Shown here: in pieces, positions 11,993-41,456 of the stretch
Numbering within the stretch: position 1 is the stretch's first letter
Layout of the letters: every line of letters begins with the position of its first letter
Assembly: GCA_024710525.1 (NCBI GenBank)
Contig: JANJUP010000022.1
Span: 192,001-256,000 of the forward strand
DNA: 64,000 nucleotides
Reading direction: 5' to 3'
DNA from: Candidatus Rifleibacteriota bacterium
Lineage (GTDB): Bacteria > Muiribacteriota > Ozemobacteria > Ozemobacterales > Ozemobacteraceae
Made by a program: the position numbers and the translations under genes
The notes under the pieces: generated by a model
Seen by the model: only the letters and a program-made list of their open reading frames with translations
The model's database searches: none
What the model was told of the DNA's origin: nothing

Positions 11993-12601
11993 TCAGTCTG
12001 AGTGCAGCTTCTCCTCAAGTTCGCGCAGGCGCTTGAGAATTTCGGTCATTTTGTCGTCATCCCTTTTTGCTGCGCTGCTCTCTGTTTTTTTGGCAGATGC
12101 TTCGTTTGAAGGACCTTGAGGCTGTTGCTGCGGCTGCGCGGCGGGGGTCTGCATAAATGGGTTCATGCCCTGAAAAGGATTCGGCATCTGCATCCAGGGA
12201 TTTTGAAAGGGCATTGATGGCATCGAAGGCATTGACGGCATTGACGGCATTGACGGCATGCCTGGCATGGTCATGCCGGGCATCGAAAATTTGCCATCCT
12301 GGTAATTCTTGTACATGCTCATCATCCAGGGGAAGAACTGCTGGAAAAAATTCTCGATCGCCTCAGGCGGCGACTGCAGCATCATCTGGTAAAAATAGGT
12401 CGGGACCAGTTCATACCGGTCTTCAAGCATGACCTGCATGAGAATGTATTTGGTGATGTCTTTTCCGGTGGTTTTTTCGACAACCTTGACCTTGTCGCCG
12501 CGCTGCAGAAAATCACGGATCTCGGTCAGTGAAACATAACGGGCTTCTTCGACACAGTATAAACGACGATTGTCGTATTTTTTAATCAGAATTTCTTTCA
12601 C
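11993..12601 (-). CDS. PhaR-like (PHB/PHA accumulation regulator DNA-binding domain) protein with a C-terminal (MPS)n / Pro-Met-rich low-complexity tail
   Basis: The N-terminus IKKYDNRRLYCVEEARYVSLTEIRDFL matches the PHB_acc_N / PhaR consensus (IKKY.NRRLY...YV.L.D). GTG start at 12601 with GAGG 9 nt upstream. The tail is PGMTMPGMPSMPSMPSMPSMPSMPF followed by a Q-rich stretch. Confidence 0.6.
   Translation of the reverse strand: MKEILIKKYDNRRLYCVEEARYVSLTEIRDFLQRGDKVKVVEKTTGKDITKYILMQVMLEDRYELVPTYFYQMMLQSPPEAIENFFQQFFPWMMSMYKNYQDGKFSMPGMTMPGMPSMPSMPSMPSMPSMPFQNPWMQMPNPFQGMNPFMQTPAAQPQQQPQGPSNEASAKKTESSAAKRDDDKMTEILKRLRELEEKLHSD
12201..12300 (-). repeat. Coding tandem repeat, 9-bp unit (ggcattgac), about 3 perfect copies plus degenerate copies, encoding (MPS)n
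   Basis: The sequence ggcattgacggcattgacggcattgacggcatgcctggcatggtcatgccgggcat lies inside the PhaR-like ORF. It is a microsatellite-like stretch that could vary in length. Confidence 0.6.
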
Positions 12602-25518: not shown

Positions 25519-26097
25519 TTACTTGCGGCACCAGTAGACGAGCGCCGGCGGAATATTGTTCCAGACCACCGGGCTGGTTTTAACTTCTGAAAAGTGTTTC
25601 TGCAGCTTCTTTCTGAATCTGATGCCCGAAGGCAGCAGCAGACCGTGCAGATAGGCGAAGGTGGTAAAAACCCCGCCTTTTTTGAGGCTGGCGACGGTTT
25701 CGTAAAGTATCTCATCCTGAAGCTCTTCAGGAAACACTGCCCATGGCAACCCGCTGATAACCGCGTCAGCATGCTTTACCCCGTGTTGCCTGAGATATTT
25801 GCGGATCTCTGCAGCCGAATCCTGATAAATGGGCACTTCGGGGACATTCTGGCTGGCGATGCGGTTCATCTGCTCATTCAGTTCGAATCCAAAAAATATC
25901 GTCTTCTCCGGGTCGATCTGTTCAACCACTTTGCGCGTAAAAGCGCCGGTGCCAGAACCAAATTCAACGATCACCCGGGCGCGGTTGAAATTGATCGGCT
26001 GCAGCATGCGTCGCGCCAGTTTCTGCGAACTGGGCGCAATCGCCCCGATTTTTCGGGGTTCTCGACAGAACTGCTTCACAAACTGCCACCGGCTCAT
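25519..26097 (-). CDS. Class I SAM-dependent methyltransferase (small-molecule / phospholipid N-methyltransferase-like family)
   Basis: Contains an IGAIAPSS motif and an EFGSGTG glycine-rich SAM-binding loop. I prefer the ATG at 26097; the track's GTG at 26109 adds 4 aa. Confidence 0.65.
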   Translation of the reverse strand: MSRWQFVKQFCREPRKIGAIAPSSQKLARRMLQPINFNRARVIVEFGSGTGAFTRKVVEQIDPEKTIFFGFELNEQMNRIASQNVPEVPIYQDSAAEIRKYLRQHGVKHADAVISGLPWAVFPEELQDEILYETVASLKKGGVFTTFAYLHGLLLPSGIRFRKKLQKHFSEVKTSPVVWNNIPPALVYWCRK

Positions 26098-26412
26098 ATT
26101 TTCACCCACAGATTGACTTTCAGCTATTATAACTCATCAGTACAAAAATCCCATATTTTTATTTGTTCTGCCGGGCAAATGCCTGCTTGTTTTTTTCTAA
26201 ATGCTGGTTTCGGCAGATCAGGCGATTGCATAAGCGAAGCCTGGTTATTACCATGACGGTATTATGTCGTCTTCCGCTGCCGGAAGGGAAAAGACTCCCG
26301 TTTATCTTGATCCGCCAGCCGGCAGAGTAAAGTATTACTTCGTAAACATTCTTGAACATGCTGATTTTATGTTACTCTCGGTGTACCCCATTGAAGAAAG
26401 GTTCTGTCTGAG

Positions 26413-27752: not shown

Positions 27753-27786
27753 AAAAGGGTCAGGCGATATTGCCTGACCCTTTTTG
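27753..27786. terminator. Bidirectional rho-independent terminator between the convergent fadL-like and kamE genes
   Basis: A 9-bp stem (gggtcaggc / gcctgaccc) with a 6-nt loop, flanked by an A-tract upstream and a T-tract downstream. Confidence 0.6.
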
Positions 27787-27807: not shown

Positions 27808-28596
27808 TTATTTCATTTTGCGTTTGACGAATTCATCGACGAAGAATGAAGCGACGTGCTCGGCATATTTGCCCGGGCCGAAGCCGGCATCGTAACCGAG
27901 TTCTTTGGCCAGATCGTTGGTGATGCGCGGGCCACCGGCAACCAGAACCACTTTGTTGCGCAGATTGGCGGCTTCAAGCAGTTCAACCAGTTCGACCATG
28001 TTGGTGACGTGGACGTCTTTCTGGGTGACGGTCTGCGAGACCAGCAGCACGTCAGCTTTTAGCTCGACCGCTTTTTTGACGAAATCTTCGTTGGTTACCT
28101 GACTGCCGAGATTGTAGGCTTCGATCATCTGGTAGCGCTCGAGCCCGTAGTGGCCGGCGTAACCCTTCATGTTCATGATCGCATCGATGCCGACGGTGTG
28201 AGCGTCGGTGCCGGTGCTGGCGCCAACGACGACGAGCTTGCGTCCGATGTTTTCTTTGATGAATTCATCGACGCCGTGCATGTCCATGATCGTTGAATCG
28301 ATGGTGGCGACCTTGATGCTGGTGATGTCGACCGTGTGAGTCAGGTTGCCATAGACGACGAAGAATGAAAAGTTCTTGTCGAGAGCTTCGTGATGCGAAA
28401 CCTGCACATCTGACAGGCCCATTTTGGCACCGAGCTGGCGGGCCGCTTCGATGGCGCGTTCGTCATCGGCAACCGGCAGGGTGAAGCTGAGCTGCACCTT
28501 GCCGTCGTTCATCGTGTCGCCATAGGGCTTGAGACGGGTCAGATCGAGTTCTTTACTGAAATTCTTCTCTTTGGTTGAATAAAGGCCGCTGCTCAT
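27808..28596 (-). CDS. kamE: Lysine 5,6-aminomutase beta subunit (B12-binding)
   Basis: 262 aa. It carries the DxHxxG cobalamin-binding motif (TDAHTVGID). Its size and its pairing with the alpha subunit fit kamE. The start overlaps the kamD stop (ATGA). Confidence 0.85.
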   Translation of the reverse strand: MSSGLYSTKEKNFSKELDLTRLKPYGDTMNDGKVQLSFTLPVADDERAIEAARQLGAKMGLSDVQVSHHEALDKNFSFFVVYGNLTHTVDITSIKVATIDSTIMDMHGVDEFIKENIGRKLVVVGASTGTDAHTVGIDAIMNMKGYAGHYGLERYQMIEAYNLGSQVTNEDFVKKAVELKADVLLVSQTVTQKDVHVTNMVELVELLEAANLRNKVVLVAGGPRITNDLAKELGYDAGFGPGKYAEHVASFFVDEFVKRKMK

Positions 28597-30152
28597 TTGT
28601 TGCCCCCCTTCAGCATCATGTCAACGAACGGGTTGAAATAGCTGCTCTGCTTTTCGACAACGCCATCGAGCCCCTTGCCACCGGTAAATGGTCGTTTGAC
28701 CCCGGCGAATTTGCCCTGTTCAAGAGTTTTGAACAGACCGTCGCGTCTGATATTTTCAAGCATGTTGCAGGCTTCGTTGAGAACCTGATTGGCGCGGGTG
28801 GTAATAATGCCGTCTTTCTTGAATTCAAGCTCATCGCCGAGATCGGCCATGGTATTGAAAATATAGCGGGCATTTTCTATCGAAAGGGCGCGGTCTGACA
28901 TCAGCGGCGTGTGAATCGCTTCGGTCAGCATGCCGAGCAGATGCAGTTTCTGGTTGGTCAGCACCGTCACCATATTGAACAGCGCATCCTGCACGTGGCC
29001 CCGGAAAATATTGCCGGTCTTGAACTTGGTCGGTGGCATATACTTCAACGGCGCTTTCGGAAAGATTTCTCGTGCCATCTGTGCCTGCGCCAGTTCATAA
29101 ACAAAGCCGTTTTTCAGGTCAGGGTTGATTTCGAACGCATGCCCTAGGCCCATCTGTTCTTCTGGAATGCCGCTGATCAGAGCGAACTGTTCATTGATGA
29201 ACTGCGAGGCCAACACGGTATGCGCCTCTTCGACGGCATCGGCAGTGGTCAGGTAATTGTCTTCGCCGGTATTGATGATTACGCCGGCAAAACCGTTGAT
29301 GATGCGCGAAAAATACTGGTCGACGAGAGTGCGCTGCATGTTGATGTCGCGGAACAGAATGCCATAGAGTGCGTCGTTGAGCATGACATCGAGGCGTTCG
29401 AGAGCGCCCATGGCGGCTATTTCAGGCATGCACAGGCCGGAGCAGTAGTTGCACAGCCTGATGTAGCGACCCTGCTTCTCTGATACCTCGTCAAGGGCGG
29501 CGCGCATCAGCCGGAAGTTTTCCTGGGTGGCAAAGGTGCCGCCAAAGCCTTCGGTAGTGGCGCCAAAAGGCACGAAGTCGAGCAGGCTCTGCCCGGTGGT
29601 TCTGATGACGGCGATGATATCGGCGCCCTGGTTGGCGGCAGCGCGGGCCTGAATGATGTCTTCGTAGATATTGCCGGTGGCAACGATTACGTAGAGATAG
29701 GGGCCTTTTTTGTCGCCGTAGCGGCCAAGGTATTCTTCCCGCTGGCGGCGGTTGCTTCTGATTCTTTCGACAGTCTGGCGGGCGATTTCTTCGATTCTGG
29801 CACGAATTTCAAACATGTCGGCCATTTTGAGCCGGGTGATGTCGAGTTCGCCACTGGCAACCGCTTCAGCGATCTGCTGCGGGGTTTTGCCGGTCTGAAT
29901 CATGGCATTGCCGATATAAGCCGAAAGGCCGAGGCTCAAACCGTTGTTACTGCGAATGTTGTCGACCAGAACGTTTGGCAGAGGTACACCCTGGGCATCG
30001 ACCCCGTCGATACCAAGCAGGCGGGCGACGGTCCGCTCGATTGTCACGCTGGTGTGCTTTTCGATGAACTTCTGGGTGTCGGCCGCGATTTCGCGGGCAT
30101 ACTGTCTGGCTTTGTCGACTATGGCAAAATTGAGATTGAGTTTGCTTTTCAT
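28593..30152 (-). CDS. kamD: Lysine 5,6-aminomutase alpha subunit
   Basis: 519 aa. It is the large PLP/TIM-barrel subunit family, sitting next to the B12-binding beta subunit. It lies in a lysine fermentation cluster with kamA, kdd and kce. Confidence 0.85.
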   Translation of the reverse strand: MKSKLNLNFAIVDKARQYAREIAADTQKFIEKHTSVTIERTVARLLGIDGVDAQGVPLPNVLVDNIRSNNGLSLGLSAYIGNAMIQTGKTPQQIAEAVASGELDITRLKMADMFEIRARIEEIARQTVERIRSNRRQREEYLGRYGDKKGPYLYVIVATGNIYEDIIQARAAANQGADIIAVIRTTGQSLLDFVPFGATTEGFGGTFATQENFRLMRAALDEVSEKQGRYIRLCNYCSGLCMPEIAAMGALERLDVMLNDALYGILFRDINMQRTLVDQYFSRIINGFAGVIINTGEDNYLTTADAVEEAHTVLASQFINEQFALISGIPEEQMGLGHAFEINPDLKNGFVYELAQAQMAREIFPKAPLKYMPPTKFKTGNIFRGHVQDALFNMVTVLTNQKLHLLGMLTEAIHTPLMSDRALSIENARYIFNTMADLGDELEFKKDGIITTRANQVLNEACNMLENIRRDGLFKTLEQGKFAGVKRPFTGGKGLDGVVEKQSSYFNPFVDMMLKGGNK

Positions 30153-30424
30153 CGTCTTCCCTTAACCTTGAAATATTTGCTCAATTATACCGCCGAAACG
30201 TCGTTTCTGCAGTATTTTTTTAGCCTTGCAGGCACCCGGGCACTTCTTACTGCAACTTTTCAGCTTTTTCCAGATGACAAGTTCACCAATATGCCTATAT
30301 ACTCATGGTAGATACAGTAAATAAAGATTCTGGTTTTCGGTCATGCCTGAGAGAGTTTGTTCCCCTGCGTTGTGTTTCACCGCAGATATATGACCACATT
30401 CGGCCTGGTTGGAGAGAAACAGAC

Positions 30425-32146
30425 ATGGCAAAACTGCCCGGCAGCATATATGACCGGCTTTTAATTATATGCATCTCACTGTTTCTGACCATCGTTATCT
30501 GGGGAGCATACATTTTTCGCGTCGAAAAAATGCTGCAGGACGAGAAACAAAGAATGGCAGACGAGGCTAAGACCTCTCTCGATGCTTCTGTGCAGCATAC
30601 CTTGATGTTGTTGAACCAGATCGGCGTTTTTCTGCGCAGTGTAAGAGAATTTTACGGTCATTGCCGTTCGGTTGAACAAACAGAAAGGTTCATCGAGGCC
30701 ATGCAGCTCGACCGGTCGCTTACCCCCAACTTTTTTCTGGTTGACGTCGACGGCAACTTTCTGATTCCACGCAATGGGGCCGGCCAGGGGCCGAATGTCG
30801 CCGACCGCAGTTATTTCAGATATCATCAGCAGAATCCTGGCGACAGCCTTTTTATTTCGGCAGTAGAGATTGGGCGCATTACCGGAAAATTTCACTTTCG
30901 AGTTGCTTTGCGAATCGACAAACCAGACGGGGCCTTCGATGGAGTCGCTCTCGTGACAGTCAGCCCGGAACTTTTTACCCGCTATTTCAAAGAATTGCAG
31001 CTGGGGCCTCAGTTTGTCGCGTCTTTAATCGGAATACACGACAGAAAAATGCGTGCCAGAATTCCGGAACCCGCAAATGACATGTGGGCCACAAGTCTGC
31101 AGAACCCCGAGTGGGAGAAGATAATTTTCGATGCTTCGGCAAGCTTTCAGACCAGAAGCCCGGTTGATCAGATTTATCGAAACTTTGTTTCCAAAAGGGT
31201 TGGTGACTTTCCTCTCGGAATGCTCGTCGGCTTTTCCGACGCGGATGTCATGAACCGGGTTGAAGAGGCAAAAAAATTATTGCAGCTGATTGCAATCATG
31301 CTGACCATTTTCCTTGCTGTCGTTGTAGTCGCGATGCTGGAAAAGGTTAAAGCCAACCAGCTGCTGCTGCAGCGAAACCAGCTGATGCTTGCAGATCTGG
31401 CTGCAGCCGCGAAAATTCAGAGTGCTTTGCTGCCCCGTACCGATTTTCTGAGTCACCGGGTTGATATGCATCTGCGCTTTTTACCCTGTAATCAGGTTGG
31501 CGGTGACATGGTCAACGTAATTCCATTTTCTGAGACCGAAATAGGAGTGTATTGTCTGGATGTGTCTGGTCATGGGATTCCGGCGGCTCTTACCGGAGTG
31601 GCGCTATCGCATATGCTGCGCAGCGACGGAAAAATTGTCAGCCAGATGCGGGATGGCAGCATTGTTCCCAATTCACCGGGCGAAATTATTGCCGGTCTGG
31701 AACGTGAGTTCCCCTTTGAGGAGCTGGGTCAGTATTTAACCATGGTTTTTTTGCTGATGGACCGTGCGAAAAACCAGCTGAAAATAGCTGCTGCCGGTCA
31801 TCCTGCACCATTACTGGTAATGCCGGACGGTCAGGTCGAAGAAATAAAAGTCGGTGGTTTACCGGTTGGCTTTGGTGATGGTGAGGTGCGTGAGGAAATT
31901 GTGATTGAGATTCCGGCCGGTGCGGCTTTGATTATCTATTCAGATGGTATTACCGAGCAGGCGGACTCGAAGGGCAGGCGATTTGGTACCGACAGGCTGA
32001 AAAAATCTCTGGCTGCGCATGCGCGCGATGGAGTTGTGGAAATGGTAGACGCTGTCTGGAACGAGCTTACGGCTTTTCGGGGCAAAGCATTGCGGGATGA
32101 CGACATGAGCCTGCTGGGTGTAAGTTTTCCGATTGAAAAAAAGTAA
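30425..32146 (+). CDS. Membrane sensor PP2C (SpoIIE/RsbU-type) Ser/Thr phosphatase with a periplasmic dCache-like domain
   Basis: The order is TM1, then about 270 aa periplasmic domain with Cache-like signatures (RSYFRYHQQNPGDSLFISAVEIGRITGKFHF), then TM2, a coiled coil and a PPM/SpoIIE domain (CLDVSGHGIPAALTGVAL). I prefer the ATG at 30425 (GGAGAG 8 nt upstream) over the track's ATG at 30305. Confidence 0.75.
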   Translation: MAKLPGSIYDRLLIICISLFLTIVIWGAYIFRVEKMLQDEKQRMADEAKTSLDASVQHTLMLLNQIGVFLRSVREFYGHCRSVEQTERFIEAMQLDRSLTPNFFLVDVDGNFLIPRNGAGQGPNVADRSYFRYHQQNPGDSLFISAVEIGRITGKFHFRVALRIDKPDGAFDGVALVTVSPELFTRYFKELQLGPQFVASLIGIHDRKMRARIPEPANDMWATSLQNPEWEKIIFDASASFQTRSPVDQIYRNFVSKRVGDFPLGMLVGFSDADVMNRVEEAKKLLQLIAIMLTIFLAVVVVAMLEKVKANQLLLQRNQLMLADLAAAAKIQSALLPRTDFLSHRVDMHLRFLPCNQVGGDMVNVIPFSETEIGVYCLDVSGHGIPAALTGVALSHMLRSDGKIVSQMRDGSIVPNSPGEIIAGLEREFPFEELGQYLTMVFLLMDRAKNQLKIAAAGHPAPLLVMPDGQVEEIKVGGLPVGFGDGEVREEIVIEIPAGAALIIYSDGITEQADSKGRRFGTDRLKKSLAAHARDGVVEMVDAVWNELTAFRGKALRDDDMSLLGVSFPIEKK

Positions 32147-32181
32147 AAACCGAGAGTTGATCGGCGCTTTCGAGAAAACCG

Positions 32182-33642
32182 TTACGACTGGTAATGGCGG
32201 CGTAATATAGCGAGAAATTCGGAGTCGAGACCAAGGATCGTGGCAATGTGCATCGCATCTTTTGGTACCTGATAGTCATCGTTGATTTTCAGCAGCCGGT
32301 AATCCATTTTTTCACACAGTTTTTGTAGAAGTGTCTCGCGGTCGGTATGTTCTTCAATAGTGTTTTTGTCTTTAAGGCCGATTACCTGATAATAAGCTGC
32401 CCCCTCGATTCTTATGCCATCGAAGTGTGTGGCAATAATTCCGTATGACCCGCTTTGCTGCAGAAACTCGCCGAGGGCCTGCACAAACCTGCTGCCCTCA
32501 GAGGGGTTCGTCGATCTGGCGAATTCGTCACAGACGGCAAGCCCGATTCCCTGACGGGTCAGGGCGGTCAGTTCGCTGAGTCTGATTATTTCAGCGCCGA
32601 AACTGCTCAGACCCGATGCCTGGTTCTGGCCATCGCCGGCGATCAGGCAGATAAAGTCAAACAGCGGCATGCAGAAGCGGCGCGCAAAAACGAAAAAGCC
32701 AAGGGTCGCCAGCTCGGCATTCATGGCCAGGGTCAGCAGAGCTACAGATTTGCCGCCCATGTTGGCTCCGGTCAGTAGTGTCGTGCCCGGACTCAGCTCG
32801 ATCGATACCGGCGTGAACTGTTTGCCACGACTGGCAAGAATTGCCTCTACTTCAGGGTTTATCATCTCTTCTGCCCGCAACGGCACTTTTTCGGCGGCGG
32901 CGAACACTTCCGGGCAGGTGCAGTTAAATTGGCAGGCCAGGCGGGTTTTGGCGAGCAGCAGTTCAAAACGTCCGGCAGCCAGACCGTTATGCCGCATTCT
33001 TGTGACCCATTCGAGCAGCTGTCTGCCGAGATTTTCTCTGACCAGGTGCTCTTCAGCCTTTTCTGACTGAACCAGGCGCGCCCGCTGATCGCGCAGTTCA
33101 TCGCGCTTCTGCTGGTCAGTACACTGCAATATGCAATTTTCGAGCTGAATTTTTTCGGCTCTGATCTCTTTGAGCTTCTGCGAATAGGCCTCGTGTACGT
33201 GAAACGAAGTGACTACTGTGCGGTCAGGATTGAGAATTTTGATAACCGGTTCGATGTCGCTGAACGAAACTGATGGCAGCTGCAGACCAGATCGCTCATA
33301 CCAGTTTTTCAGGCTGGTGAGCAGCATCGCAAAACCTTTGATTTCGAGCAGCTCCGTTTCGTCGGGTACCTGTCCGGCTTCGAGATTGTCGAGCGAGCCG
33401 TTGATGTAACGCAGGCACTTAAAAATACTGCCGGCCTGATCAAAAAAACTTTTATCGTTCCGGGCAGCAGTAACCATGATTTCAAGTTCAGCAAGGCTCT
33501 GGCGCAACTGTTCCAGCTGATCAGATTTTGCCGGTCGCAGGTTTTTAAGAGCTTCGCGGCCGTAGAGCGATTCTATCTGCAGCTCAGAAAGCAGCCAGGC
33601 AACCCCGGGGGTGCTGGCGCGGTATTTTTTCTGTCTATGCAT
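32182..33642 (-). CDS. MutS domain-V-like ABC ATPase (MutS2-related; no Smr domain seen)
   Basis: A MutS-type Walker A motif (TGANMGGKS) is present. I chose the ATG at 33642 (AGAAAGG upstream, 2 nt after the upstream stop); the track's start at 33747 would overlap the upstream gene by 113 nt. Confidence 0.65.
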   Translation of the reverse strand: MHRQKKYRASTPGVAWLLSELQIESLYGREALKNLRPAKSDQLEQLRQSLAELEIMVTAARNDKSFFDQAGSIFKCLRYINGSLDNLEAGQVPDETELLEIKGFAMLLTSLKNWYERSGLQLPSVSFSDIEPVIKILNPDRTVVTSFHVHEAYSQKLKEIRAEKIQLENCILQCTDQQKRDELRDQRARLVQSEKAEEHLVRENLGRQLLEWVTRMRHNGLAAGRFELLLAKTRLACQFNCTCPEVFAAAEKVPLRAEEMINPEVEAILASRGKQFTPVSIELSPGTTLLTGANMGGKSVALLTLAMNAELATLGFFVFARRFCMPLFDFICLIAGDGQNQASGLSSFGAEIIRLSELTALTRQGIGLAVCDEFARSTNPSEGSRFVQALGEFLQQSGSYGIIATHFDGIRIEGAAYYQVIGLKDKNTIEEHTDRETLLQKLCEKMDYRLLKINDDYQVPKDAMHIATILGLDSEFLAILRRHYQS

Positions 33643-34687
33643 GCTGGGGCGCCTTTCTGCCGAATGTTTGATTCTGTGCAGCACACACATCGAAAATCGG
33701 CAGGTTGATTTTTTCAGACAGGTTCCGGCAGAGCTCTGCACCGTCAAGCTTCAGGCCTGATGGTGCGGTCGGATTGACCGTCACCGCTATCAGATTGACC
33801 TGGCGTCTGACCGCCAGTCTGGCACCACGGTCGATCAGGTCACATTTCTGGCGGCTGTTGATGAGATATCTGGTGCCGTCTTCGGCGACAAGCTGCAGCC
33901 ATTCGAGCCGTCGGCACTTATCGAGCAGTCGCTGCAGCATTGGCCTGGTTACGGCGCCGTTGAACAAAGCCGTGGTTGGTTGCCCGCTGCGGCCGGCGAT
34001 CTGGTCGGCACATTCGTCGCTGAGCGCGCTGACCCTGCCGCAGATGTTACCGTCCTGGTCGAGAAGAATACAATTGTTGGCATCTTCACTTTTGCACGTA
34101 AAAGCTGCATCTGACTTGAATTCTGGCAGAGTGAGAAGTCCGGTGTAATGGCGGGTCTGCTCGACAATATCATCGGAGTTTGGCGAAAATGCTGCCCCGG
34201 TTGCCAGTATGCAGGCCTCTGAACTGGCGATTGCCGCAGTAGACTTGCGGGCGGCGGCGCCGTCGACGAGAACCTGTGTGGCGCCAAGTTCGTGCAGCAT
34301 ACTGATCAATGCCGACATCTGCGCCGTGGTAGAGGGTCCGGCGATCTGGGCAAAACCATCGCTGCGGGCTCTGGTGATAACGACCTCGCCCATCGGTGTG
34401 TTAAAGCCGGTAAAACGCAGAAGCTCACGGGTAAAATCACATTGCCCGAGAAGACTGCTGGCTGTGGCAACCATTGTGCCACAGCCAACATATATCGACG
34501 GTTTGTCAGTTCCGGTCACCTGATCGGTATCTTCACCATCGTAGCCGATCGAGGTGATCGCCTGAACCACGGGCGGTCTGCTGCTGAGAAGATGGTTGAG
34601 CACCGTTGTTTTGCCGGCATTTTTTTCCATGCCGATGATGGCAACGCAGCTGTAACCTTCGATCAGTTCAGCAAGTGACCTGCCCAT
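33635..34687 (-). CDS. P-loop NTPase of unknown function, embedded in the lysine fermentation cluster
   Basis: Walker A motif IIGMEKNAGKTT. 350 aa. Its start lies 3 nt after the kamA stop. I recognise no family. Confidence 0.5.
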   Translation of the reverse strand: MGRSLAELIEGYSCVAIIGMEKNAGKTTVLNHLLSSRPPVVQAITSIGYDGEDTDQVTGTDKPSIYVGCGTMVATASSLLGQCDFTRELLRFTGFNTPMGEVVITRARSDGFAQIAGPSTTAQMSALISMLHELGATQVLVDGAAARKSTAAIASSEACILATGAAFSPNSDDIVEQTRHYTGLLTLPEFKSDAAFTCKSEDANNCILLDQDGNICGRVSALSDECADQIAGRSGQPTTALFNGAVTRPMLQRLLDKCRRLEWLQLVAEDGTRYLINSRQKCDLIDRGARLAVRRQVNLIAVTVNPTAPSGLKLDGAELCRNLSEKINLPIFDVCAAQNQTFGRKAPQHA

Positions 34688-34690
34688 TGT

Positions 34691-35962
34691 TCATGATCTT
34701 TTTTTGCGTTTTTTGCGCTTCAAACCTTCGGGTTCGAGCGAAATTTTGCCCTGATGCAGGCCGGCAACGCCTTCGATTTCGACGTCGCCCTTCTGGCAGG
34801 CATCACATTTGCAGCTCGGTTTGTAACCCTCGGGTTCGTTATAGCAGGTGATGACACCTTCATAATTGCGCAGAATCGTCTTCTCGTAGCCGCTCGAAAT
34901 CAGGTAATTCGGCATTACCGGAATCTTGCCGCCACCACCCGGTGCGTCAACCACGTAAGTCGGCACGCAGAAACCGCTGGTATGGCCGCGCAGACCTTCG
35001 ATTATCTCGATGCCCTTGGCTACCGGGGTTCTGAAGTGTGACAGCCCGTAAGAAAGGTCGCACTGATAGATGTAATAAGGTCTTACTCTGACTTTGACCA
35101 GCTCATGCACCAGCTTGCGCATTACATGAACGCAGTCGTTGACACCGGCCAGCAGAACCGACTGGTTCCCGATCGGAATTCCGGCATAACTCAGCAGTTC
35201 GCAGGCTTTGGCGGCGTCGGTGGTGATTTCTTTCGGATGGTTGTAGTGGGTGTTGACCCAGATCGGGTGATACTTCTTGAGCATATCGCAGAGCTCGGGC
35301 GTAATGCGCTGAGGCAGAACGACCGGGGTGCGGGTGCCGATTCTGATGATTTCGACGTGCGGAATGGCGCGCAGTTTCTGCAGAATGCCTTCGAGTTTAT
35401 TGTCTGCCAGCAGCAGCGGGTCGCCGCCCGAGACGACGACGTCGCGAATCTGCGGATTGGCTGCAATATACTCAATGGCCTTGTCGATGTGGCTGCTGGG
35501 CATTGCCGTGTCTTTCTGACCGGCAAAGCGTCTGCGGGTGCAGTGGCGGCAATACATCGAGCACTGGTCGGTGACCAGAAGCAGGGCGCGGTCAGGGTAG
35601 CGGTGGGTCAGTCCGTGAACTGGCGAATCGCCGTCTTCGTGCAGCGGGTCTTCGAGATCGGCCGGCGAACGATAAAGTTCGAGGTCGGTCGGAATAGCCT
35701 GCTTGCGCACCGGATCATTGGGGTTGTCCGGATCGATGAGGGTCAGATAATACGGCGTAATCGCCATGCGCAGGGTTGTCAGACAGTCTTTGACGCCGTC
35801 GACTTCCATTTCGGTCAGCTTAACGTATTTTCTGAGATCGTCGATGGTTTCGATACGGTTGCGGACATGCCATTTCCAGTCGTTCCAGTCGGTGTCGCTG
35901 ACGTTCGGAAACAGCTTTGCCCGTCGCTGAATGTGCTCATCACGAGTGTAACTGCTGTTCAA
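34691..35962 (-). CDS. kamA: L-lysine 2,3-aminomutase (radical SAM)
   Basis: Very close to characterised KamA sequences (SDTDWNDWKWHVRNRIET; CSMYCRHCTRRRFAGQ radical-SAM Cys triad; HVEIIRIGTRTPVVLPQRITPEL; PYYIYQCDLS; VVDAPGGGGK). TTG start at 35962 with GGAAAGGA upstream. Confidence 0.95.
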   Translation of the reverse strand: MNSSYTRDEHIQRRAKLFPNVSDTDWNDWKWHVRNRIETIDDLRKYVKLTEMEVDGVKDCLTTLRMAITPYYLTLIDPDNPNDPVRKQAIPTDLELYRSPADLEDPLHEDGDSPVHGLTHRYPDRALLLVTDQCSMYCRHCTRRRFAGQKDTAMPSSHIDKAIEYIAANPQIRDVVVSGGDPLLLADNKLEGILQKLRAIPHVEIIRIGTRTPVVLPQRITPELCDMLKKYHPIWVNTHYNHPKEITTDAAKACELLSYAGIPIGNQSVLLAGVNDCVHVMRKLVHELVKVRVRPYYIYQCDLSYGLSHFRTPVAKGIEIIEGLRGHTSGFCVPTYVVDAPGGGGKIPVMPNYLISSGYEKTILRNYEGVITCYNEPEGYKPSCKCDACQKGDVEIEGVAGLHQGKISLEPEGLKRKKRKKRS

Positions 35963-36003
35963 TTACTGATTCCTTTCCCTGTTGGGGCACTTTGTGAGGT
36001 GTC

Positions 36004-37047
36004 TCAGCAGTACATTTCTTCGAAAAGTTTGCGGAGTGCCGGGCTTTCGCGCAGAACCTGCAGCGAAATGGCGGCGTGGTCTTTGCAGTAGCCATTACCG
36101 ATGATCATGTTAACGTCTTTGCCAACGCCTTCAGCGCCAAGAGCAGCCTGAGTGAAGCTGGTGGCCATGCTGAAGAAATAAACGGTGCCGCCTTCTCTGC
36201 AGGAGAGAATGCTTGCCATTTCGGTGTTGGGGATGTTAACGCAGTTGATTACCAGGTCAGCGAGCTTGCTATCGGTAAGAGCGCTGATTTTGTTGTAGAT
36301 GCTGATTGCATCAGTGGCGTCAGCGGCGAAATATTCGTCGGCGAGACCGAGCTGGCGGGCGCGTTCGGTGCTCTTTTCTGAGCCGCCGATGCAGATTACC
36401 TTGCCGGTGATGCCGGCGCGTTTTTTCGCTTCATACAGGCAGAGAAGACCTGATTTTCCGCCGCCGCCGATTACAACGACGATGTCGCCGGGGCGAACGA
36501 GCTTGGCAGCCTGAGCAGGGGCACCGGCCACGTCGAGAACCGAGAGGGCGAGGGTTTCGGGCATATCATTCGGCAGAACGGCATAGATGCCGCTTTCAAA
36601 CAGAATTGCCTGGCCCTTGATGTCGACCTGGTCGATGTCGGGTCTTACTTCGAGAATTTTTTCGATTTTGAGCGGGGTGAGAGAGAGAGAGACGAGAGTG
36701 GCGATCTTGTCGCCGACTTTCAGCGGGGTTTTCCCTTTGAGGGCCGGGCCGATTTCTTTAACGGTGCCGATCAGCATCCCGCCTGAACCGGTAACCGGGT
36801 TTTTGTGCTTGCCCTGCTTTTCAACGAGGCCCATCATGATTTTCTTGATCTCTTCGATATCATGGTTGGCCTGTTTTTCGATCTGGGTGAAACTGGCTGA
36901 GTCGACATTGAGAGTCCTGACGTCGATCAGAATCTCGTTGTCATAAATCTCCATGGTGTTGTCGATTCTGAGTGCCGGCTGCGGCAGAACGCCTTTGGGC
37001 TCGATAACACGGTGGGTTCCATAGGGGCATCCTTTTTTCACAGTCAT
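36004..37047 (-). CDS. kdd: L-erythro-3,5-diaminohexanoate dehydrogenase
   Basis: 347 aa. It is an NAD(P)-binding Rossmann protein (VVVIGGGGKSGL). Its N-terminal region resembles Kdd. It sits between kamA and the CoA transferase genes. AGGAGA RBS. Confidence 0.85.
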   Translation of the reverse strand: MTVKKGCPYGTHRVIEPKGVLPQPALRIDNTMEIYDNEILIDVRTLNVDSASFTQIEKQANHDIEEIKKIMMGLVEKQGKHKNPVTGSGGMLIGTVKEIGPALKGKTPLKVGDKIATLVSLSLTPLKIEKILEVRPDIDQVDIKGQAILFESGIYAVLPNDMPETLALSVLDVAGAPAQAAKLVRPGDIVVVIGGGGKSGLLCLYEAKKRAGITGKVICIGGSEKSTERARQLGLADEYFAADATDAISIYNKISALTDSKLADLVINCVNIPNTEMASILSCREGGTVYFFSMATSFTQAALGAEGVGKDVNMIIGNGYCKDHAAISLQVLRESPALRKLFEEMYC

Positions 37048-37164: not shown

Positions 37165-37830
37165 TTAAACTTCCATCGTTTTCAGATTATCTGAAACTAT
37201 GAAATCGGCTTCAGTGTTTGCGCGTATTTCGTCGATGGTCGTGTCTTTATTGATCTCGATCAGAGCGAGGCCACCCGGGGTGACCCTGAAAACGCCAAGT
37301 TCGGTTACGATCATGTTGACAACGTGGCGTGCCGTCAGCGGCAGGCGGCATTTTTTGAGAATCTTCGGCTTGCCGCGCTCGGTGTGCAGTGTCGAAACGA
37401 TGACGTTTTTAGCGCCGACGACGAGGTCCATCGCGCCGCCCATTCCAGGAACCTTCTTGCCCGGGATGATCCAGCTGGCGAGGCTGCCTTCCTGGTCGAC
37501 TTCGAGGGCGCCAAGAACCGTGTATTCAACGTGCTTGCCGCGAATCAGGGCGAACGACATGGCGCTGTCGAAATAGCAGCCGTGTGGCAGAATCGTGACC
37601 ATGGCGCCGCCGGCATTGGTGAGTTCCGGGTTTTCTTTGCCCGGTTCGGGGGCGGGGCCCATGCCGATCATGCCGTTTTCAGACTGGAGAATGACATTGA
37701 CGCCCTGTGGGATATGATTGGCAACCATGGTCGGCAGGCCGATACCCAGGTTAACCAGCTGATTGTTCTTGAATTCGCGGGCGATGCGCTTCGCGATAAT
37801 GTTTTTGGCCAGTTCGATATCTTCGATCAT
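37165..37830 (-). CDS. 3-oxoacid CoA-transferase, B subunit
   Basis: 221 aa. It has the typical AtoA/ScoB N-terminus ([23 protein letters not shown]) and glutamate active-site region (ENGMIGMGP). Confidence 0.85.
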
Positions 37831-37848
37831 CTTGTTGCTCCTTGCCCG

Positions 37849-38508
37849 TCAGCGTTTTTCGGATTTGAAAATATGGGTGACCAGCGGGCCCGGGGTCATT
37901 ACCAGTTCGGGCATCAGTTCGCCTGGTTCAACCAGTTTTTCGGCTTCAACCACGACAACGCCGGCAGCCATAGCCATCAGCGGGTTGAAGTTGCGGGTAG
38001 TTGCGTTGTAAACGACGTTGCCGGCCTTGTCGACACTGCTGCCGTTGATAATGGCCAGGTCAGCGCGCAACGGCAGTTCGAGCAGATACTCGTGGCCGTC
38101 GACGGTGATTTTCTGCTTGCCCTCTTCAACGACGGTGCCGACACCAGTTGGGGTCAGCACGCCGCCGAGCCCGGCACCGGCGCATCTGATGCGTTCAGCC
38201 AGAGTGCCCTGCGGAACCAGTTCGACGTTGAGGGTGCCTTCGACCATCTGTTTGCCGGTCTCAGGGTTGGTGCCGATATGTGAAGTGATGACCTTTGCCG
38301 CCTGCTTGGCGGCAACCAGGCGGCCAACGCCGCGGTCGACGAACGAGGTGTCGTTGCAGATAAGAGTAAGGTTTTTGGCACCGCTGGCGAGAATGAGGTC
38401 GATCAGCGTTTCGGGGGTGCCGCAACCAAGAAAACCGCCAACCATGATGACCATGCCGTCTTTGATCAGGCTGGTAAAGTCATTTTTGTTGATAATCTTG
38501 TCAAACAT
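37849..38508 (-). CDS. 3-oxoacid CoA-transferase, A subunit
   Basis: 219 aa, AtoD/ScoA-like (DGMVIMVGGFLGCGTPETL). It lies directly upstream of the B subunit. Confidence 0.85.
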   Translation of the reverse strand: MFDKIINKNDFTSLIKDGMVIMVGGFLGCGTPETLIDLILASGAKNLTLICNDTSFVDRGVGRLVAAKQAAKVITSHIGTNPETGKQMVEGTLNVELVPQGTLAERIRCAGAGLGGVLTPTGVGTVVEEGKQKITVDGHEYLLELPLRADLAIINGSSVDKAGNVVYNATTRNFNPLMAMAAGVVVVEAEKLVEPGELMPELVMTPGPLVTHIFKSEKR

Positions 38509-38535: not shown

Positions 38536-39360
38536 TCAGCGGGGCTTGAGACCGAGAATGGCGCGGGCTTCGTCGGGGGTGGCGATTTCACGGCCGAGTT
38601 CTTTGGCGATGCGCACCGCTTTGGCGACCAGTTCGCCGTTAGAAGTGGCGAGAACACCTTTCGACAGGTAGGTGTTGTCTTCAAAACCAACCCTGACGTG
38701 GCCGCCAAGCAGAATGGCGGTAGTGGCCATCTGGAACTGCGATCTGCCGATACCGGAAACGGTAAAGGTACTGCCGGCCGGAATACTGCCCTGCATGTAA
38801 ACCACGTCGCGAACACTGGCGCTGATACCGCCGGTAACGCCCATAACGAAGTTAAAATGCATCGGCGACGCGATAAAGCCTTTTTTCTGTAGTCTGATCG
38901 CCGTGTCGATCATGCCCTTGTCGAATACTTCGACTTCGGGTTTGACGCCGAGTTCGAGCATTTTTTTGCCGAAGGCGATGATCGTGTTTTCGGAATTGAC
39001 GAAGATATCGTCGTTGCCGAAATTCACGGTGCCGCAGTCGAGAGTCGCCATTTCAGGCTTCAGATCGACCGGCTGCAGGCGTTCTTCGTTCGACATGCCG
39101 ACGGCGCCGCCGGTCGAAGGCTGAATGATGGCCTTCGGGCAGCGTTCCTGAATGGCATTGATCGCGGCACGAAAGCGCTCACGACTCTGGGTCGGAGTGC
39201 CGTTGTCTTCGCGCACATGCAGATGAATGATCGATGCGCCAGCGTTAACTGCCGATTCGGCTTCACGCACCAGTTCGGCGATTGTATAAGGTACCGCCGG
39301 GTTATTTTCTTTGGTTACTTCAGCGCCGCAGATGGCGGCAGTAATGATGAGTTTTTCCAT
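38536..39360 (-). CDS. kce: 3-keto-5-aminohexanoate cleavage enzyme (BKACE / DUF849 family)
   Basis: 274 aa. It belongs to the BKACE TIM-barrel family (IITAAICGAEVTKENNPAVPYT...ASIIHLHVRED), and its lysine-fermentation context fits kce. Confidence 0.85.
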   Translation of the reverse strand: MEKLIITAAICGAEVTKENNPAVPYTIAELVREAESAVNAGASIIHLHVREDNGTPTQSRERFRAAINAIQERCPKAIIQPSTGGAVGMSNEERLQPVDLKPEMATLDCGTVNFGNDDIFVNSENTIIAFGKKMLELGVKPEVEVFDKGMIDTAIRLQKKGFIASPMHFNFVMGVTGGISASVRDVVYMQGSIPAGSTFTVSGIGRSQFQMATTAILLGGHVRVGFEDNTYLSKGVLATSNGELVAKAVRIAKELGREIATPDEARAILGLKPR

Positions 39361-39371
39361 GTTTCCCTGCC

Positions 39372-40625
39372 TCAGTATTTCTTTTCGTCGACGAACGAAA
39401 GTGATTCGTCAATTGCCTTGAGCGTGTATTTGAGATCTTCATCAGTGTGCCGGTAGCAGATGTAACCGTGGTGATACGGCTGCAGGAACACCTTGCGTCT
39501 GATCAGCTGGGTATAGAAGTCGACGCGCTTTGCCTTGTAGGTTTTCGACTCGTCTTTGTTGAAAGTGACGAAAGGCATCTGTGGCACCGGAGAAGCGCCG
39601 GTCGAAACTTTGTGCTTTGCCAGAACCTTGCCGAGCTCAGCGTTGAACCATTCACCCTTGGCTTTGATCACATCGAGAACCTTGTCGCGTTCGAGCATTT
39701 CGATGGTTTTGAGAGCGGCGGCGAATTCAAGGCTGTTCGGGAAGAAAGTCGATGAAATGAAAACTTCCTTTTCGATTTTTTTCATGAACTGCGCTTTGCC
39801 GACACAGGCGCCGATCGGGTAACCATTCGCCATTGCTTTGCCGAAGGTTGACAGGTCGGGGGTGACGCCAAACAGGGTCTGGGCGCCACCGATATGAACT
39901 CTGAAGCCGGAGCGGATTTCGTCAAAAATAAGAACCGCGCCGTATTTGTCGGCCAGAGCTCTTACGCCTTCGAGAAAGCCGGGTTTCGGATATTCGACCT
40001 GCTCGGCGAGGGGGTGCCCGATCGGGGTAACGATGATGGCAGCAGTCTGGTCGCCATGCTGCTTCATCAGATCTTCGAGCTGTTCGAGATGGTTATAGTG
40101 AAATTCATAAACATCTTCATAGAGTTTGGCAGGAACGCCACCTTTTACTTCGACGCACCAGTCATGCCAGCCATGGTACCCGCAGCGCATGATCTTGTTC
40201 CGGCCAGTGTAGCCACGGGCAACGCGGGTTGCCAGAGTTGTGGCATCTGAGCCGGTTTTGACGAAAACGGTCATTTCGGCACATTTGATCAAGTTTTTCA
40301 ACTTAACTGCCAGCTGATTCTGAATTGGCTGGGTGAGAGAAAAACAGAAGCCTTTGTTGCGCATCTGGTCGATTGCGGCGTTATCGATTTCTTCTTCGCG
40401 GTGGCCGATGATGATCGGGCCGTAGGCACAAAGGTAATCGAGATATTCGTTGCCGTCGATATCGGTTATTCTGCCGCCTTTACCGTGGTCGAAATATATC
40501 GGGTATTCGCCCTCGACAAAGTTGTATGGGCGTCTGATACCGAGAACACCACCCGGGGTGCAGGTCTTGCCGTGTTCGAATTCGGCCATGCTTTTCTTTA
40601 AATTGAGCTTCGGTGCGTCGTACAT
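39372..40625 (-). CDS. Class III (glutamate-1-semialdehyde aminomutase-like) PLP aminotransferase. Candidate 3-aminobutyryl-CoA aminotransferase (Kat-like).
   Basis: Class-III aminotransferase fold, with the PLP-lysine region (FDEIRSGFR...). It sits where kal (the ammonia lyase) is found in canonical clusters. I prefer the ATG at 40625 with GGAGG upstream. Confidence 0.7.
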   Translation of the reverse strand: MYDAPKLNLKKSMAEFEHGKTCTPGGVLGIRRPYNFVEGEYPIYFDHGKGGRITDIDGNEYLDYLCAYGPIIIGHREEEIDNAAIDQMRNKGFCFSLTQPIQNQLAVKLKNLIKCAEMTVFVKTGSDATTLATRVARGYTGRNKIMRCGYHGWHDWCVEVKGGVPAKLYEDVYEFHYNHLEQLEDLMKQHGDQTAAIIVTPIGHPLAEQVEYPKPGFLEGVRALADKYGAVLIFDEIRSGFRVHIGGAQTLFGVTPDLSTFGKAMANGYPIGACVGKAQFMKKIEKEVFISSTFFPNSLEFAAALKTIEMLERDKVLDVIKAKGEWFNAELGKVLAKHKVSTGASPVPQMPFVTFNKDESKTYKAKRVDFYTQLIRRKVFLQPYHHGYICYRHTDEDLKYTLKAIDESLSFVDEKKY

Positions 40626-40749
40626 AATTCCTTCCCTCCTGATATATGTTCTGATGAGGTAAAACAAGCTGCGAATCAAGTATTGAACCACTTGCAGGGC
40701 AAATCAGCCGCAGCCTTGTTAATGCTATCACAAACTCTGGTTTCTTTCT

Positions 40750-40790
40750 GCAAAAAAAAATCCCCCGTTGCCGGGGGATTTTCGCTGGTT
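40750..40790 (-). terminator. Rho-independent terminator of the acidic repeat protein gene
   Basis: An 8-bp GC stem (atcccccg / ttgc / cgggggat). On the minus strand it is followed by a 9-U tract (the plus-strand A9 at 40752-40760). Confidence 0.6.
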
Positions 40791-40796
40791 TTAAAG

Positions 40797-41456
40797 TCAG
40801 TCTTCAGAAGAACTGTCGTCAGATGAGCTGTCTGTAGCCGACGAATCTGCGTCAGAGTCATCGCTGCCGCTGTCTGAATCGCCCGAGTCATCAGAACTAC
40901 CGGAATCTGAGTCCCCGGAGTCGCCCGAATCGTCAGAGTCATCCGGTTTATCAGAGTCACCCGAATCGTCTGGGTTGTCAGAGTCGCCCGAATCATCCGG
41001 CTTGTCCGAATCATCGGTATCATCCGAATCTCCAGAATCTCCAGAATCACCGGAGTCGCCTGAGTCGCCCGAATCACCGGAATCACCCGAATCACCCGAA
41101 TCACCCGAATAGCCTGAGCCTGAACTTCCGGAAGAAGATCCGGAGGCGCTGTCTGGAACGCTTTCCCAGGTGTCGGCCTTGATTTCTTTGCCTACGAGGG
41201 TACCTTCAATTTTGATATCTTTGTTTTCATACTGCTCGGCAATGGCCTTGCCGTTTTCATCCATAACCAGTGTGTAGGTTACCGGATTACCGGCGCCATC
41301 ACGATTGCTGGTCTGAAGGACAGCGCCGCTGATCTGCCTGCTGGCATCTCTGGTAACGGTAATCATGCCGGAAAAGAATGCAGCAGAAGCAGAGGCCAGG
41401 GACATGGCAAAGAACCCTGCCGCCAGGGCGGCAACGGTAATTTTTTTGGATCTCAT
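40797..41456 (-). CDS. Secreted protein with a long acidic Ser/Gly/Asp (SGD)n low-complexity tail
   Basis: A signal peptide is followed by a folded domain of about 100 aa. The tail is about 110 aa of GDSGDSGDS...DDSGDSDKPDDS repeats with strongly negative charge. Confidence 0.7.
   Translation of the reverse strand: MRSKKITVAALAAGFFAMSLASASAAFFSGMITVTRDASRQISGAVLQTSNRDGAGNPVTYTLVMDENGKAIAEQYENKDIKIEGTLVGKEIKADTWESVPDSASGSSSGSSGSGYSGDSGDSGDSGDSGDSGDSGDSGDSGDSDDTDDSDKPDDSGDSDNPDDSGDSDKPDDSDDSGDSGDSDSGSSDDSGDSDSGSDDSDADSSATDSSSDDSSSED
40985..41110 (-). repeat. Coding tandem repeats (9/18-bp units, gaatcaccc-like) encoding (SGD)n
   Basis: Seen directly, for example ccggaatcacccgaatcacccgaatcacccgaat. 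It is a length-variable microsatellite-like stretch. Confidence 0.6.

Follow-up and report, generated by a model that had tools for sequence, protein, structure and literature searches.

What two P-loop ATPases are doing in a lysine-fermentation gene cluster is the question raised by a stretch of 64,000 nucleotides (nt) from a Candidatus Rifleibacteriota bacterium (GenBank assembly GCA_024710525.1, contig JANJUP010000022.1, positions 192,001–256,000), the whole of which is referred to here as the window. The two genes, kamB (33635..34687; 350 amino acids [aa], 37.3 kDa) and kamC (32182..33642; 486 aa, 54.6 kDa), are on the minus strand, as are all of the lysine-fermentation genes, and follow kamA, the gene for lysine 2,3-aminomutase. 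A first-pass annotation of the DNA, made without database searches, had put the pair forward as a candidate ATP-dependent reactivase or chaperone of the lysine aminomutase that uses both B12 and pyridoxal phosphate (PLP). As far as similarity and existing annotation go, this proposal was borne out: both proteins exceed the cutoffs of curated families that carry the reactivase name, and orthologues bear that name in RefSeq and UniRef. Judging from the families that they belong to, from gene context and from analogy, KamB and KamC probably (with a probability of roughly 0.8) constitute the ATP-dependent reactivase of KamDE, the adenosylcobalamin (AdoCbl)- and PLP-dependent lysine 5,6-aminomutase.

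Comparison to the curated equivalog models of NCBIfam (release 20.0) gave 313.6 bits (cutoff, 210; E = 1.3e-93) for KamB against NF052386, “lysine 5,6-aminomutase reactivase subunit KamB”, with residues 15–334 aligned to positions 1–326 of a 326-position model, and 446.9 bits (cutoff, 300; E = 9.7e-134) for KamC against NF052383, “lysine 5,6-aminomutase reactivase ATPase KamC”, with residues 14–483 aligned to positions 3–507 of 508. The two proteins are almost certainly orthologues of KamB and KamC, do not differ from these families at the protein level, and share their gene order and kam-cluster context with the named RefSeq orthologues, which include KamB of Clostridium senegalense (WP_010293638.1) and KamC of C. 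senegalense and Alkaliphilus hydrothermalis. Relative to the named loci, the window differs locally by a SpoIIE/PP2C gene that splits kamBC from kamDE and by a kat-type (aminotransferase) cluster. The statement in the first-pass annotation that no dedicated reactivase has been firmly assigned has been overtaken by database annotation, since the assignment already exists in NCBIfam, RefSeq and UniRef; as these names already hold it, the window adds only one more orthologue pair, from Candidatus Rifleibacterium. Window KamB is identical to proteins in records of metagenome-assembled genomes (MAGs) of Candidatus Rifleibacterium sp., where it is labelled “hypothetical protein”. One member (GAB1355064.1) of its 90%-identity cluster carries the label ‘Erysipelotrichia bacterium’, the other named members being Candidatus Rifleibacterium, and this label is probably a binning or taxonomy error of that MAG. 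An earlier pathway paper drew both genes, as “HP” and “mutS”, in clusters from Cloacimonas and Bacteroidetes and gave them no role (PMC3149608). A 2022 review, citing Krishnan et al. 2020, describes MutS-like proteins in operons of AdoCbl enzymes that were proposed to assist the ATP-dependent assembly of metalloprotein complexes (PMC9164220). No paper naming the aminomutase KamB or KamC was found in the open-access literature, where all matches to these names were aminoglycoside-resistance methyltransferases.

The product of kamA (34691..35962, minus strand) was identified by TIGR03820 (617 bits; cutoff, 525) and by the Pfam families LAM_C and Radical_SAM. Three nucleotides, ACA, lie between its stop codon TGA (34693..34691) and the kamB ATG at 34687, a distance that the first-pass annotation had given correctly. 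The next start is not, as also described there, 2 nt further on; the two genes overlap by 8 nt, with the kamC ATG (33642) and the kamB stop codon TAG both contained in the octamer ATGCATAG (33642..33635). The minus-strand order is kamA, the 350-aa protein and the MutS-like protein, and not the MutS-like protein first as the title of that annotation implied. Translational coupling links kamB with kamC and the two with kamA. A 521-aa form of KamC, starting at a TTG codon, was dropped as an over-extended open reading frame (ORF), and the 486-aa ATG form is preferred because homologues are 483–490 aa in length (with 100% coverage of the ATG form).

The genes of the presumed client of KamBC, kamD (28593..30152, minus strand; NF052384, 929.6 bits; Pfam Lys-AminoMut_A, E = 1e-272) and kamE (27808..28596, minus strand; NF052385, 399.6 bits; Pfam OAM_dimer and B12-binding), do not directly adjoin the pair. 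The pair had been placed between kamA and kamDE, which holds in that it follows kamA and precedes kamD, but a plus-strand gene intervenes (30305..32146), coding for a 613-aa SpoIIE/PP2C phosphatase with a dCache-like sensor (Pfam SpoIIE, E = 4.5e-35; weak dCache matches). This gene is no part of the reactivase. A consensus scan for terminators identified a hairpin with a T-run 17 nt past the kamC stop codon (32149..32165, minus strand) and a strong terminator-like hairpin past kamE (27753..27784, minus strand); the overall number of sites in the scan was not above the shuffled expectation, so that the hairpin after kamC is suggestive only. It marks the probable end of a kat-kce-ctfAB-kdd-kamA-kamB-kamC transcription unit in this genome, and because of the opposite-strand gene and the hairpins after kamC and kamE, kamDE is probably transcribed separately. 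The junction between kamC and kamD is variable among the Rifleibacteria. At the locus of the closest relative (L001), the two genes are 88 nt apart (12503–12592) and the SpoIIE/PP2C gene is absent; a second locus (L006, 12522–14838) contains an arginine-deiminase-family gene and an unknown 328-aa ORF, and a third (L004, 12509–21050) lacks kamDE over the 8.5 kb that follow.

A scan that took one genome from each species yielded 586 stretches encoding KamB; 80 loci were kept and explored for 10 kb on each side using tblastn with the window proteins, and 34 of these were well flanked (8 kb or more to either side). KamC was found downstream of KamB in 68 of the 70 loci whose downstream sequence was long enough (immediately adjacent in 66), and both KamD and KamA were within 10 kb in 27 of the 34 well-flanked loci. 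The pair-bearing loci belonged to Rifleibacteria, Clostridia, Fusobacteria and archaeal MAGs. Retention of the pair in other kam clusters, which had been put forward as a check, was thus seen in Clostridium, Fusobacterium, Alkaliphilus, Rifleibacteria and archaeal MAGs. The order kamA-kamB-kamC-kamD-kamE occurred in Clostridium, Fusobacterium, Alkaliphilus, Alkalithermobacter, Vallitalea, Rifleibacteria and one archaeal MAG, and the Oscillospiraceae and Christensenellales often possessed kamB-kamC-x-kce-kdd-kamA-kamD-kamE. Stand-alone kamB-kamC pairs, with no kam, kce or kdd gene within 10 kb, were present in MAGs of Christensenellales, Eubacteriales and other Clostridia (L013, L018, L026, L036, L048 and L075; kamB starts near position 10001 in most of them). 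Lysine-fermentation kam clusters in archaeal MAGs, one of them Asgard-affiliated, were a side observation of the scan: an uncultured archaeon (L071, 3875–8735) has kamB-kamC-kamD-kamE, and in the Asgard-affiliated Promethearchaeia MAG (L070, 10001–13398) kamB runs straight into kamD-kamE, with no kamC in the 17 kb examined. A Rifleibacteria MAG from reindeer (L008) has kdd-kamA-kamB, and both kamC and kamDE are missing from the 10 kb that follow.

KamC matched only MutS_V in Pfam (55 bits; cutoff, 30), with no match to MutS_I, II, III or IV or to Smr. Its AlphaFold2 model (mean predicted local distance difference test score, 91) was compared using Foldseek and superposed on the MutS2 cores of T. 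maritima (9kce; template modelling score, 0.70/0.71) and T. thermophilus (7vuf; 0.69/0.72), as well as on the corresponding region of MutS and MSH proteins. The first-pass annotation had described the protein as retaining only the ABC (ATP-binding cassette) ATPase; the lack of a mismatch-binding or Smr region stands, but the predicted fold is that of the whole MutS2 core, helical lever and ATPase, whereas the mismatch-binding and connector domains, KOW and Smr are all missing. The likeness to MutS2 (RqcU), at template modelling scores of about 0.7 in both directions, covers the ABC ATPase, the lever of long helices, the C-terminal helices, Walker A, a signature-like motif, Walker B and TH. KamC differs from MutS2 in its low identity (18–20%), in having no KOW/Smr C-terminal half, in a reduced clamp region, and in its constant pairing with KamB within an operon for the fermentation of an amino acid. 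The Walker A motif TGANMGGKS (residues 291–299; 32746..32772, minus strand) is present as reported from the sequence, with T291, G292, N294, M295, G296, G297 and K298 invariant in 53 homologues, in which GLSSFGAE (344–351), the Walker B motif DEFARSTNPxEG (372–383) and TH (405–406) are mostly invariant or nearly so. This conservation of the catalytic motifs argues for KamC being an active, probably dimeric, ABC-type ATPase.

KamB has no Pfam family and was not matched by the ArgK or CobW families of Pfam even at an E-value of 10. Its predicted structure is that of a divergent SIMIBI-class P-loop nucleoside triphosphatase (NTPase) in the N-terminal domain, with an extra alpha/beta domain, so that the 350-aa protein, at first placed in no recognisable family, now has both a family (NF052386) and a fold class. 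The Walker A motif GMEKNAGKTT (residues 19–28; 34604..34633, minus strand), likewise reported correctly, is part of a set of family motifs, GxxKNxGKT (19–27), TSIGxDGE (45–52), AGPS (116–119) and the Walker-B/switch-like DGAxxR (142–147). Among 56 homologues, G19, K22, N23, G25, K26 and T27 are invariant, as are S46-I47-G48, D50-G51-E52, A116-G117-P118, D142-G143, R147 and N305-P306, and T28, T45, C83, S119 and A144 are nearly so. In fold comparisons, the highest score was to dethiobiotin synthetase (12.1), followed by SRP54 (11.2), FlhF (10.9), DUF1611 (10.4), MinD/ParA proteins (about 10), UreG (9.5) and MMAA/MeaB (8.1). KamB is in this respect closer to dethiobiotin synthetase (BioD), SRP54 and FlhF than to MMAA, and it is not a member of the G3E GTPase chaperones (MeaB/MMAA, CobW, UreG and HypB), its likeness to them being at the general SIMIBI level. 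Compared to MeaB/MMAA, the G3E GTPase chaperone of methylmalonyl-CoA mutase, it lacks the G4 motif NKxD (no [NT]KxD occurs in the sequence) as well as the ArgK/CobW match, and possesses a beta-rich insertion (about residues 60–115) and a C-terminal alpha/beta domain (about residues 190–340), neither of which has assigned relatives. Against the PDB, a sequence-profile search returned no chain and Foldseek no significant match (best E = 0.02). A further candidate role, in which the C-terminal domain of KamB mimics KamD or KamE in a DdrB-like swapping of subunits, found no support in sequence profiles: alignment of the two halves of KamB to KamD, KamE and KamA profiles using hhalign gave probabilities of at most 3%, which leaves mimicry by structure alone conceivable. 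The first-pass annotation had named two outcomes that would speak against a reactivase, travel of the pair with DNA-repair genes and placement of the 350-aa protein in an unrelated, well-characterised family. Neither was seen, as the pair is kept in kam clusters, no DNA-repair genes were found in the window flanks or at the stand-alone loci inspected (where the neighbours were unrelated housekeeping genes), and Pfam, PDB sequence and fold searches gave no such family for KamB.

Relative to L001, the window has a DNA identity of about 88–90% across the operon genes and 83–86% in the flanks. The pathway enzymes share 97–99% of their residues between the two loci, compared to 88% for KamB and 86% for KamC, and across all loci the median identity to the window is 38% for KamB and 35% for KamC, against 69–75% for KamA, KamD and KamE. 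The ratio of non-synonymous to synonymous substitution rates (dN/dS) with respect to L001 is 0.185 for KamB and 0.113 for KamC, and 0.011–0.049 for eight other genes; at non-synonymous sites, KamB and KamC change 4–10 times faster than the pathway enzymes (dS is highest for KamC, 0.73 compared to 0.21–0.43). KamB and KamC are clearly under purifying selection, and are much less constrained than the catalytic enzymes. As dN/dS is below 1 for both, as each has hundreds of homologues, and as the E-values to the curated hidden Markov models are as low as 1e-93 and 1e-133, kamB and kamC are real genes and not chance ORFs.

A role in reactivation has a counterpart in the classical enzymology of lysine 5,6-aminomutase. 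The native enzyme was described as an alpha2beta2 core, E1 (KamDE), accompanied by a sulfhydryl protein of ~80 kDa, E2, without which E1 is neither reactivated nor regulated by ATP; when recombinant KamDE is on its own, it inactivates itself by an electron transfer that gives cob(III)alamin, and E2 may swap the bound, damaged cobalamin for free AdoCbl (PMC3958899, PMC9081730). Preparations of E2 were reported to confer ATP allostery and to possess an ‘AdoCbl synthetase’ activity, with label from [8-14C]ATP moving to E1 (PMC3958899). KamB and KamC together amount to 91.9 kDa, which is compatible with E2 within the accuracy of the old sizing, and are rich in cysteine (12 residues in KamB and 10 in KamC). 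KamBC is likely to be the molecular identity of this ATP-requiring activating protein. In the proposed mechanism, turnover of KamDE would end in suicide by electron transfer, with cob(III)alamin left tightly bound; KamB would then bind the inactivated alpha2beta2 enzyme together with KamC, which is probably a dimer of the MutS kind whose ATP sites are composite; the binding and hydrolysis of nucleotide would pry the B12-binding (KamE) domain from the TIM barrel, allowing the damaged cofactor out; and the apoenzyme, once let go, would rebind intact AdoCbl.

Several observations weigh against a reactivase of this kind. Neither a biochemical test of KamB or KamC nor the experimental source of the NCBIfam names was found in the open-access literature, and there is no deposited structure of either protein. 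In the window, kamDE is cut off from the pair by an opposite-strand gene and is probably transcribed on its own; seven of the 34 well-flanked loci carry kamBC with no kamDE within 10 kb, and two loci (L008 and L070) have kamB without kamC. The ~80 kDa of E2 corresponds neither to a KamC dimer with KamB nor exactly to a heterodimer of 92 kDa, and the old ‘AdoCbl synthetase’ activity is left unexplained by a pure exchange model. This last activity, along with the ATP label on E1, would be accounted for if KamB itself handled the corrinoid, by re-adenosylation in situ (a role that the ‘AdoCbl synthetase’ report would allow) or by hand-over. Such a repair could be unlike that of any characterised B12 reactivase, with a MutS2-like dimer of KamC clamping the two-fold-symmetric alpha2beta2 aminomutase in the way that MutS2 clamps collided ribosomes; a related option is that the stand-alone kamBC pairs of Christensenellales and Oscillospiraceae service a different, unrecognised client. 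These ideas are speculative, with a low chance of being right. A small chance is given to KamBC being no repair factor at all, but rather a chaperone for the delivery or gating of the cofactor, or an ATP-dependent allosteric activator, that loads AdoCbl into new apoenzyme or re-adenosylates cobalamin in situ, as MeaB/MMAA and an adenosyltransferase do on methylmalonyl-CoA mutase. While the activities reported for E2 preparations would suit a protein of this kind, KamB, with neither an NKxD motif nor an ArgK/CobW match, is not nearer to MeaB than to BioD, SRP54 or MinD, and it is the term ‘reactivase’ that the NCBIfam curators chose. Repair and delivery are also not mutually exclusive, as DdrAB and MeaB do both.

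The stand-alone pairs with their unrelated neighbours, and the coupling of the pair to kamA and not to kamD in the window, could point to a client that is broader than or other than KamDE, such as another B12 or radical enzyme, KamA included, with the link to kamDE being one of several uses. This is very unlikely. The scan examined 10 kb on each side, so that kamDE may sit elsewhere in the genomes with a stand-alone pair; at Oscillospiraceae and related loci (L016, L031, L045, L060, L066 and L072), kamBC is only a few genes upstream of kce-kdd-kamA-kamD-kamE; and no other B12 enzyme was located beside any pair. KamA is an S-adenosylmethionine/[4Fe-4S] enzyme and is not known to have an ATP-dependent repair factor, which counts against it as the client. 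Lastly, the best matches of KamC in both sequence and fold are MutS2 and MutS, from which KamC could be taken for a MutS2 paralogue directed at nucleic acids or ribosomes (in the suppression of recombination or the rescue of collided ribosomes), or for an ABC-ATPase component of a defence system, with its position among the kam genes incidental. KamC falls well short of membership in these families, at 118.3 bits against the MutS2 model TIGR01069 (cutoff, 400), with the protein ending at residue 486 and no Smr domain, and at 63.5 and 66 bits against the MutS1 models TIGR01070 and NF003810 (cutoffs, 642 and 480). It also lacks the MutS_I and KOW domains, a strict synteny with kam genes extends across phyla, and no repair or defence genes were present in the neighbourhoods inspected; a role of this kind is extremely unlikely. 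A marginal PADLOC match to PtuA (E = 1e-4, residues 271–307) is limited to the Walker A region, and KamC was rejected as a defence-system part.

The rest of the lysine-fermentation operon precedes kamA on the minus strand, in the 5′ to 3′ order class-III aminotransferase (39372..40691), kce (BKACE; 38536..39360), the CoA-transferase subunits A and B (37849..38508 and 37165..37830), kdd (36004..37047), kamA, kamB and kamC, with the enzymes upstream of kamA recognised by Pfam and NCBIfam matches. From the aminotransferase to kdd, this order is the same in the Rifleibacteria loci L001–L011. The aminotransferase is kat-like and resembles glutamate-1-semialdehyde aminomutase, though it is under every NCBIfam cutoff, and is kept in the Rifleibacteria loci and in two loci of Alkaliphilus/Natronincolaceae (L059 and L065). 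It fits lysine fermentation of the kat type, the variant with a 3-aminobutyryl-CoA aminotransferase that has been described for Cloacimonas (PMC3149608). Flanking genes in the window code for an MscS channel, a permease, a FadL-type porin, CmoA/CmoB-like methyltransferases, an EEP nuclease-fold protein and a queuosine-salvage protein, and a search of the whole window at the Rfam gathering thresholds returned no riboswitches or other structured RNAs. Just upstream of the operon, a 219-aa ORF (40797–41456, minus strand) with no Pfam family has a hydrophobic, signal-peptide-like N-terminus followed by ~100 residues of acidic SGDSGD/DDSGDSD repeats, and is separated from the operon by a terminator-like hairpin (40778..40762). 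Plus-strand ORFs of 220–328 aa (35105–36091, 37324–38283 and 25594–26256) are antisense to the kamA and CoA-transferase genes or located in a spacer, are of low complexity and rich in Arg, Ala and Gly, and are very likely shadow ORFs and not genes.

DdrA, GdrA and EutA, the ATPases of known B12 reactivases, have the ASKHA (Hsp70/actin-like) fold. The systems that they belong to resemble the proposed KamBC reactivase in that an ATP-dependent factor, of two components (DdrAB) or one (EutA), is encoded beside a suicide-inactivated AdoCbl enzyme and frees damaged cobalamin to be replaced by AdoCbl (PMC3958899, PMC9081730). The folds, in contrast, are unrelated, as KamBC has no actin/Hsp70-like member and would instead combine a MutS-type ABC ATPase (KamC) with a SIMIBI P-loop NTPase (KamB), making two nucleotide-binding proteins compared to the one of DdrAB/GdrAB/EutA-type reactivases. 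Lysine 5,6-aminomutase has attracted interest for biocatalysis and quickly inactivates itself in vitro, and with the reactivase genes known, the two could be co-expressed. For B12 enzymes as a whole, KamBC would be a third, structurally unrelated solution to the problem of repair, besides the ASKHA reactivases and the G3E GTPases.

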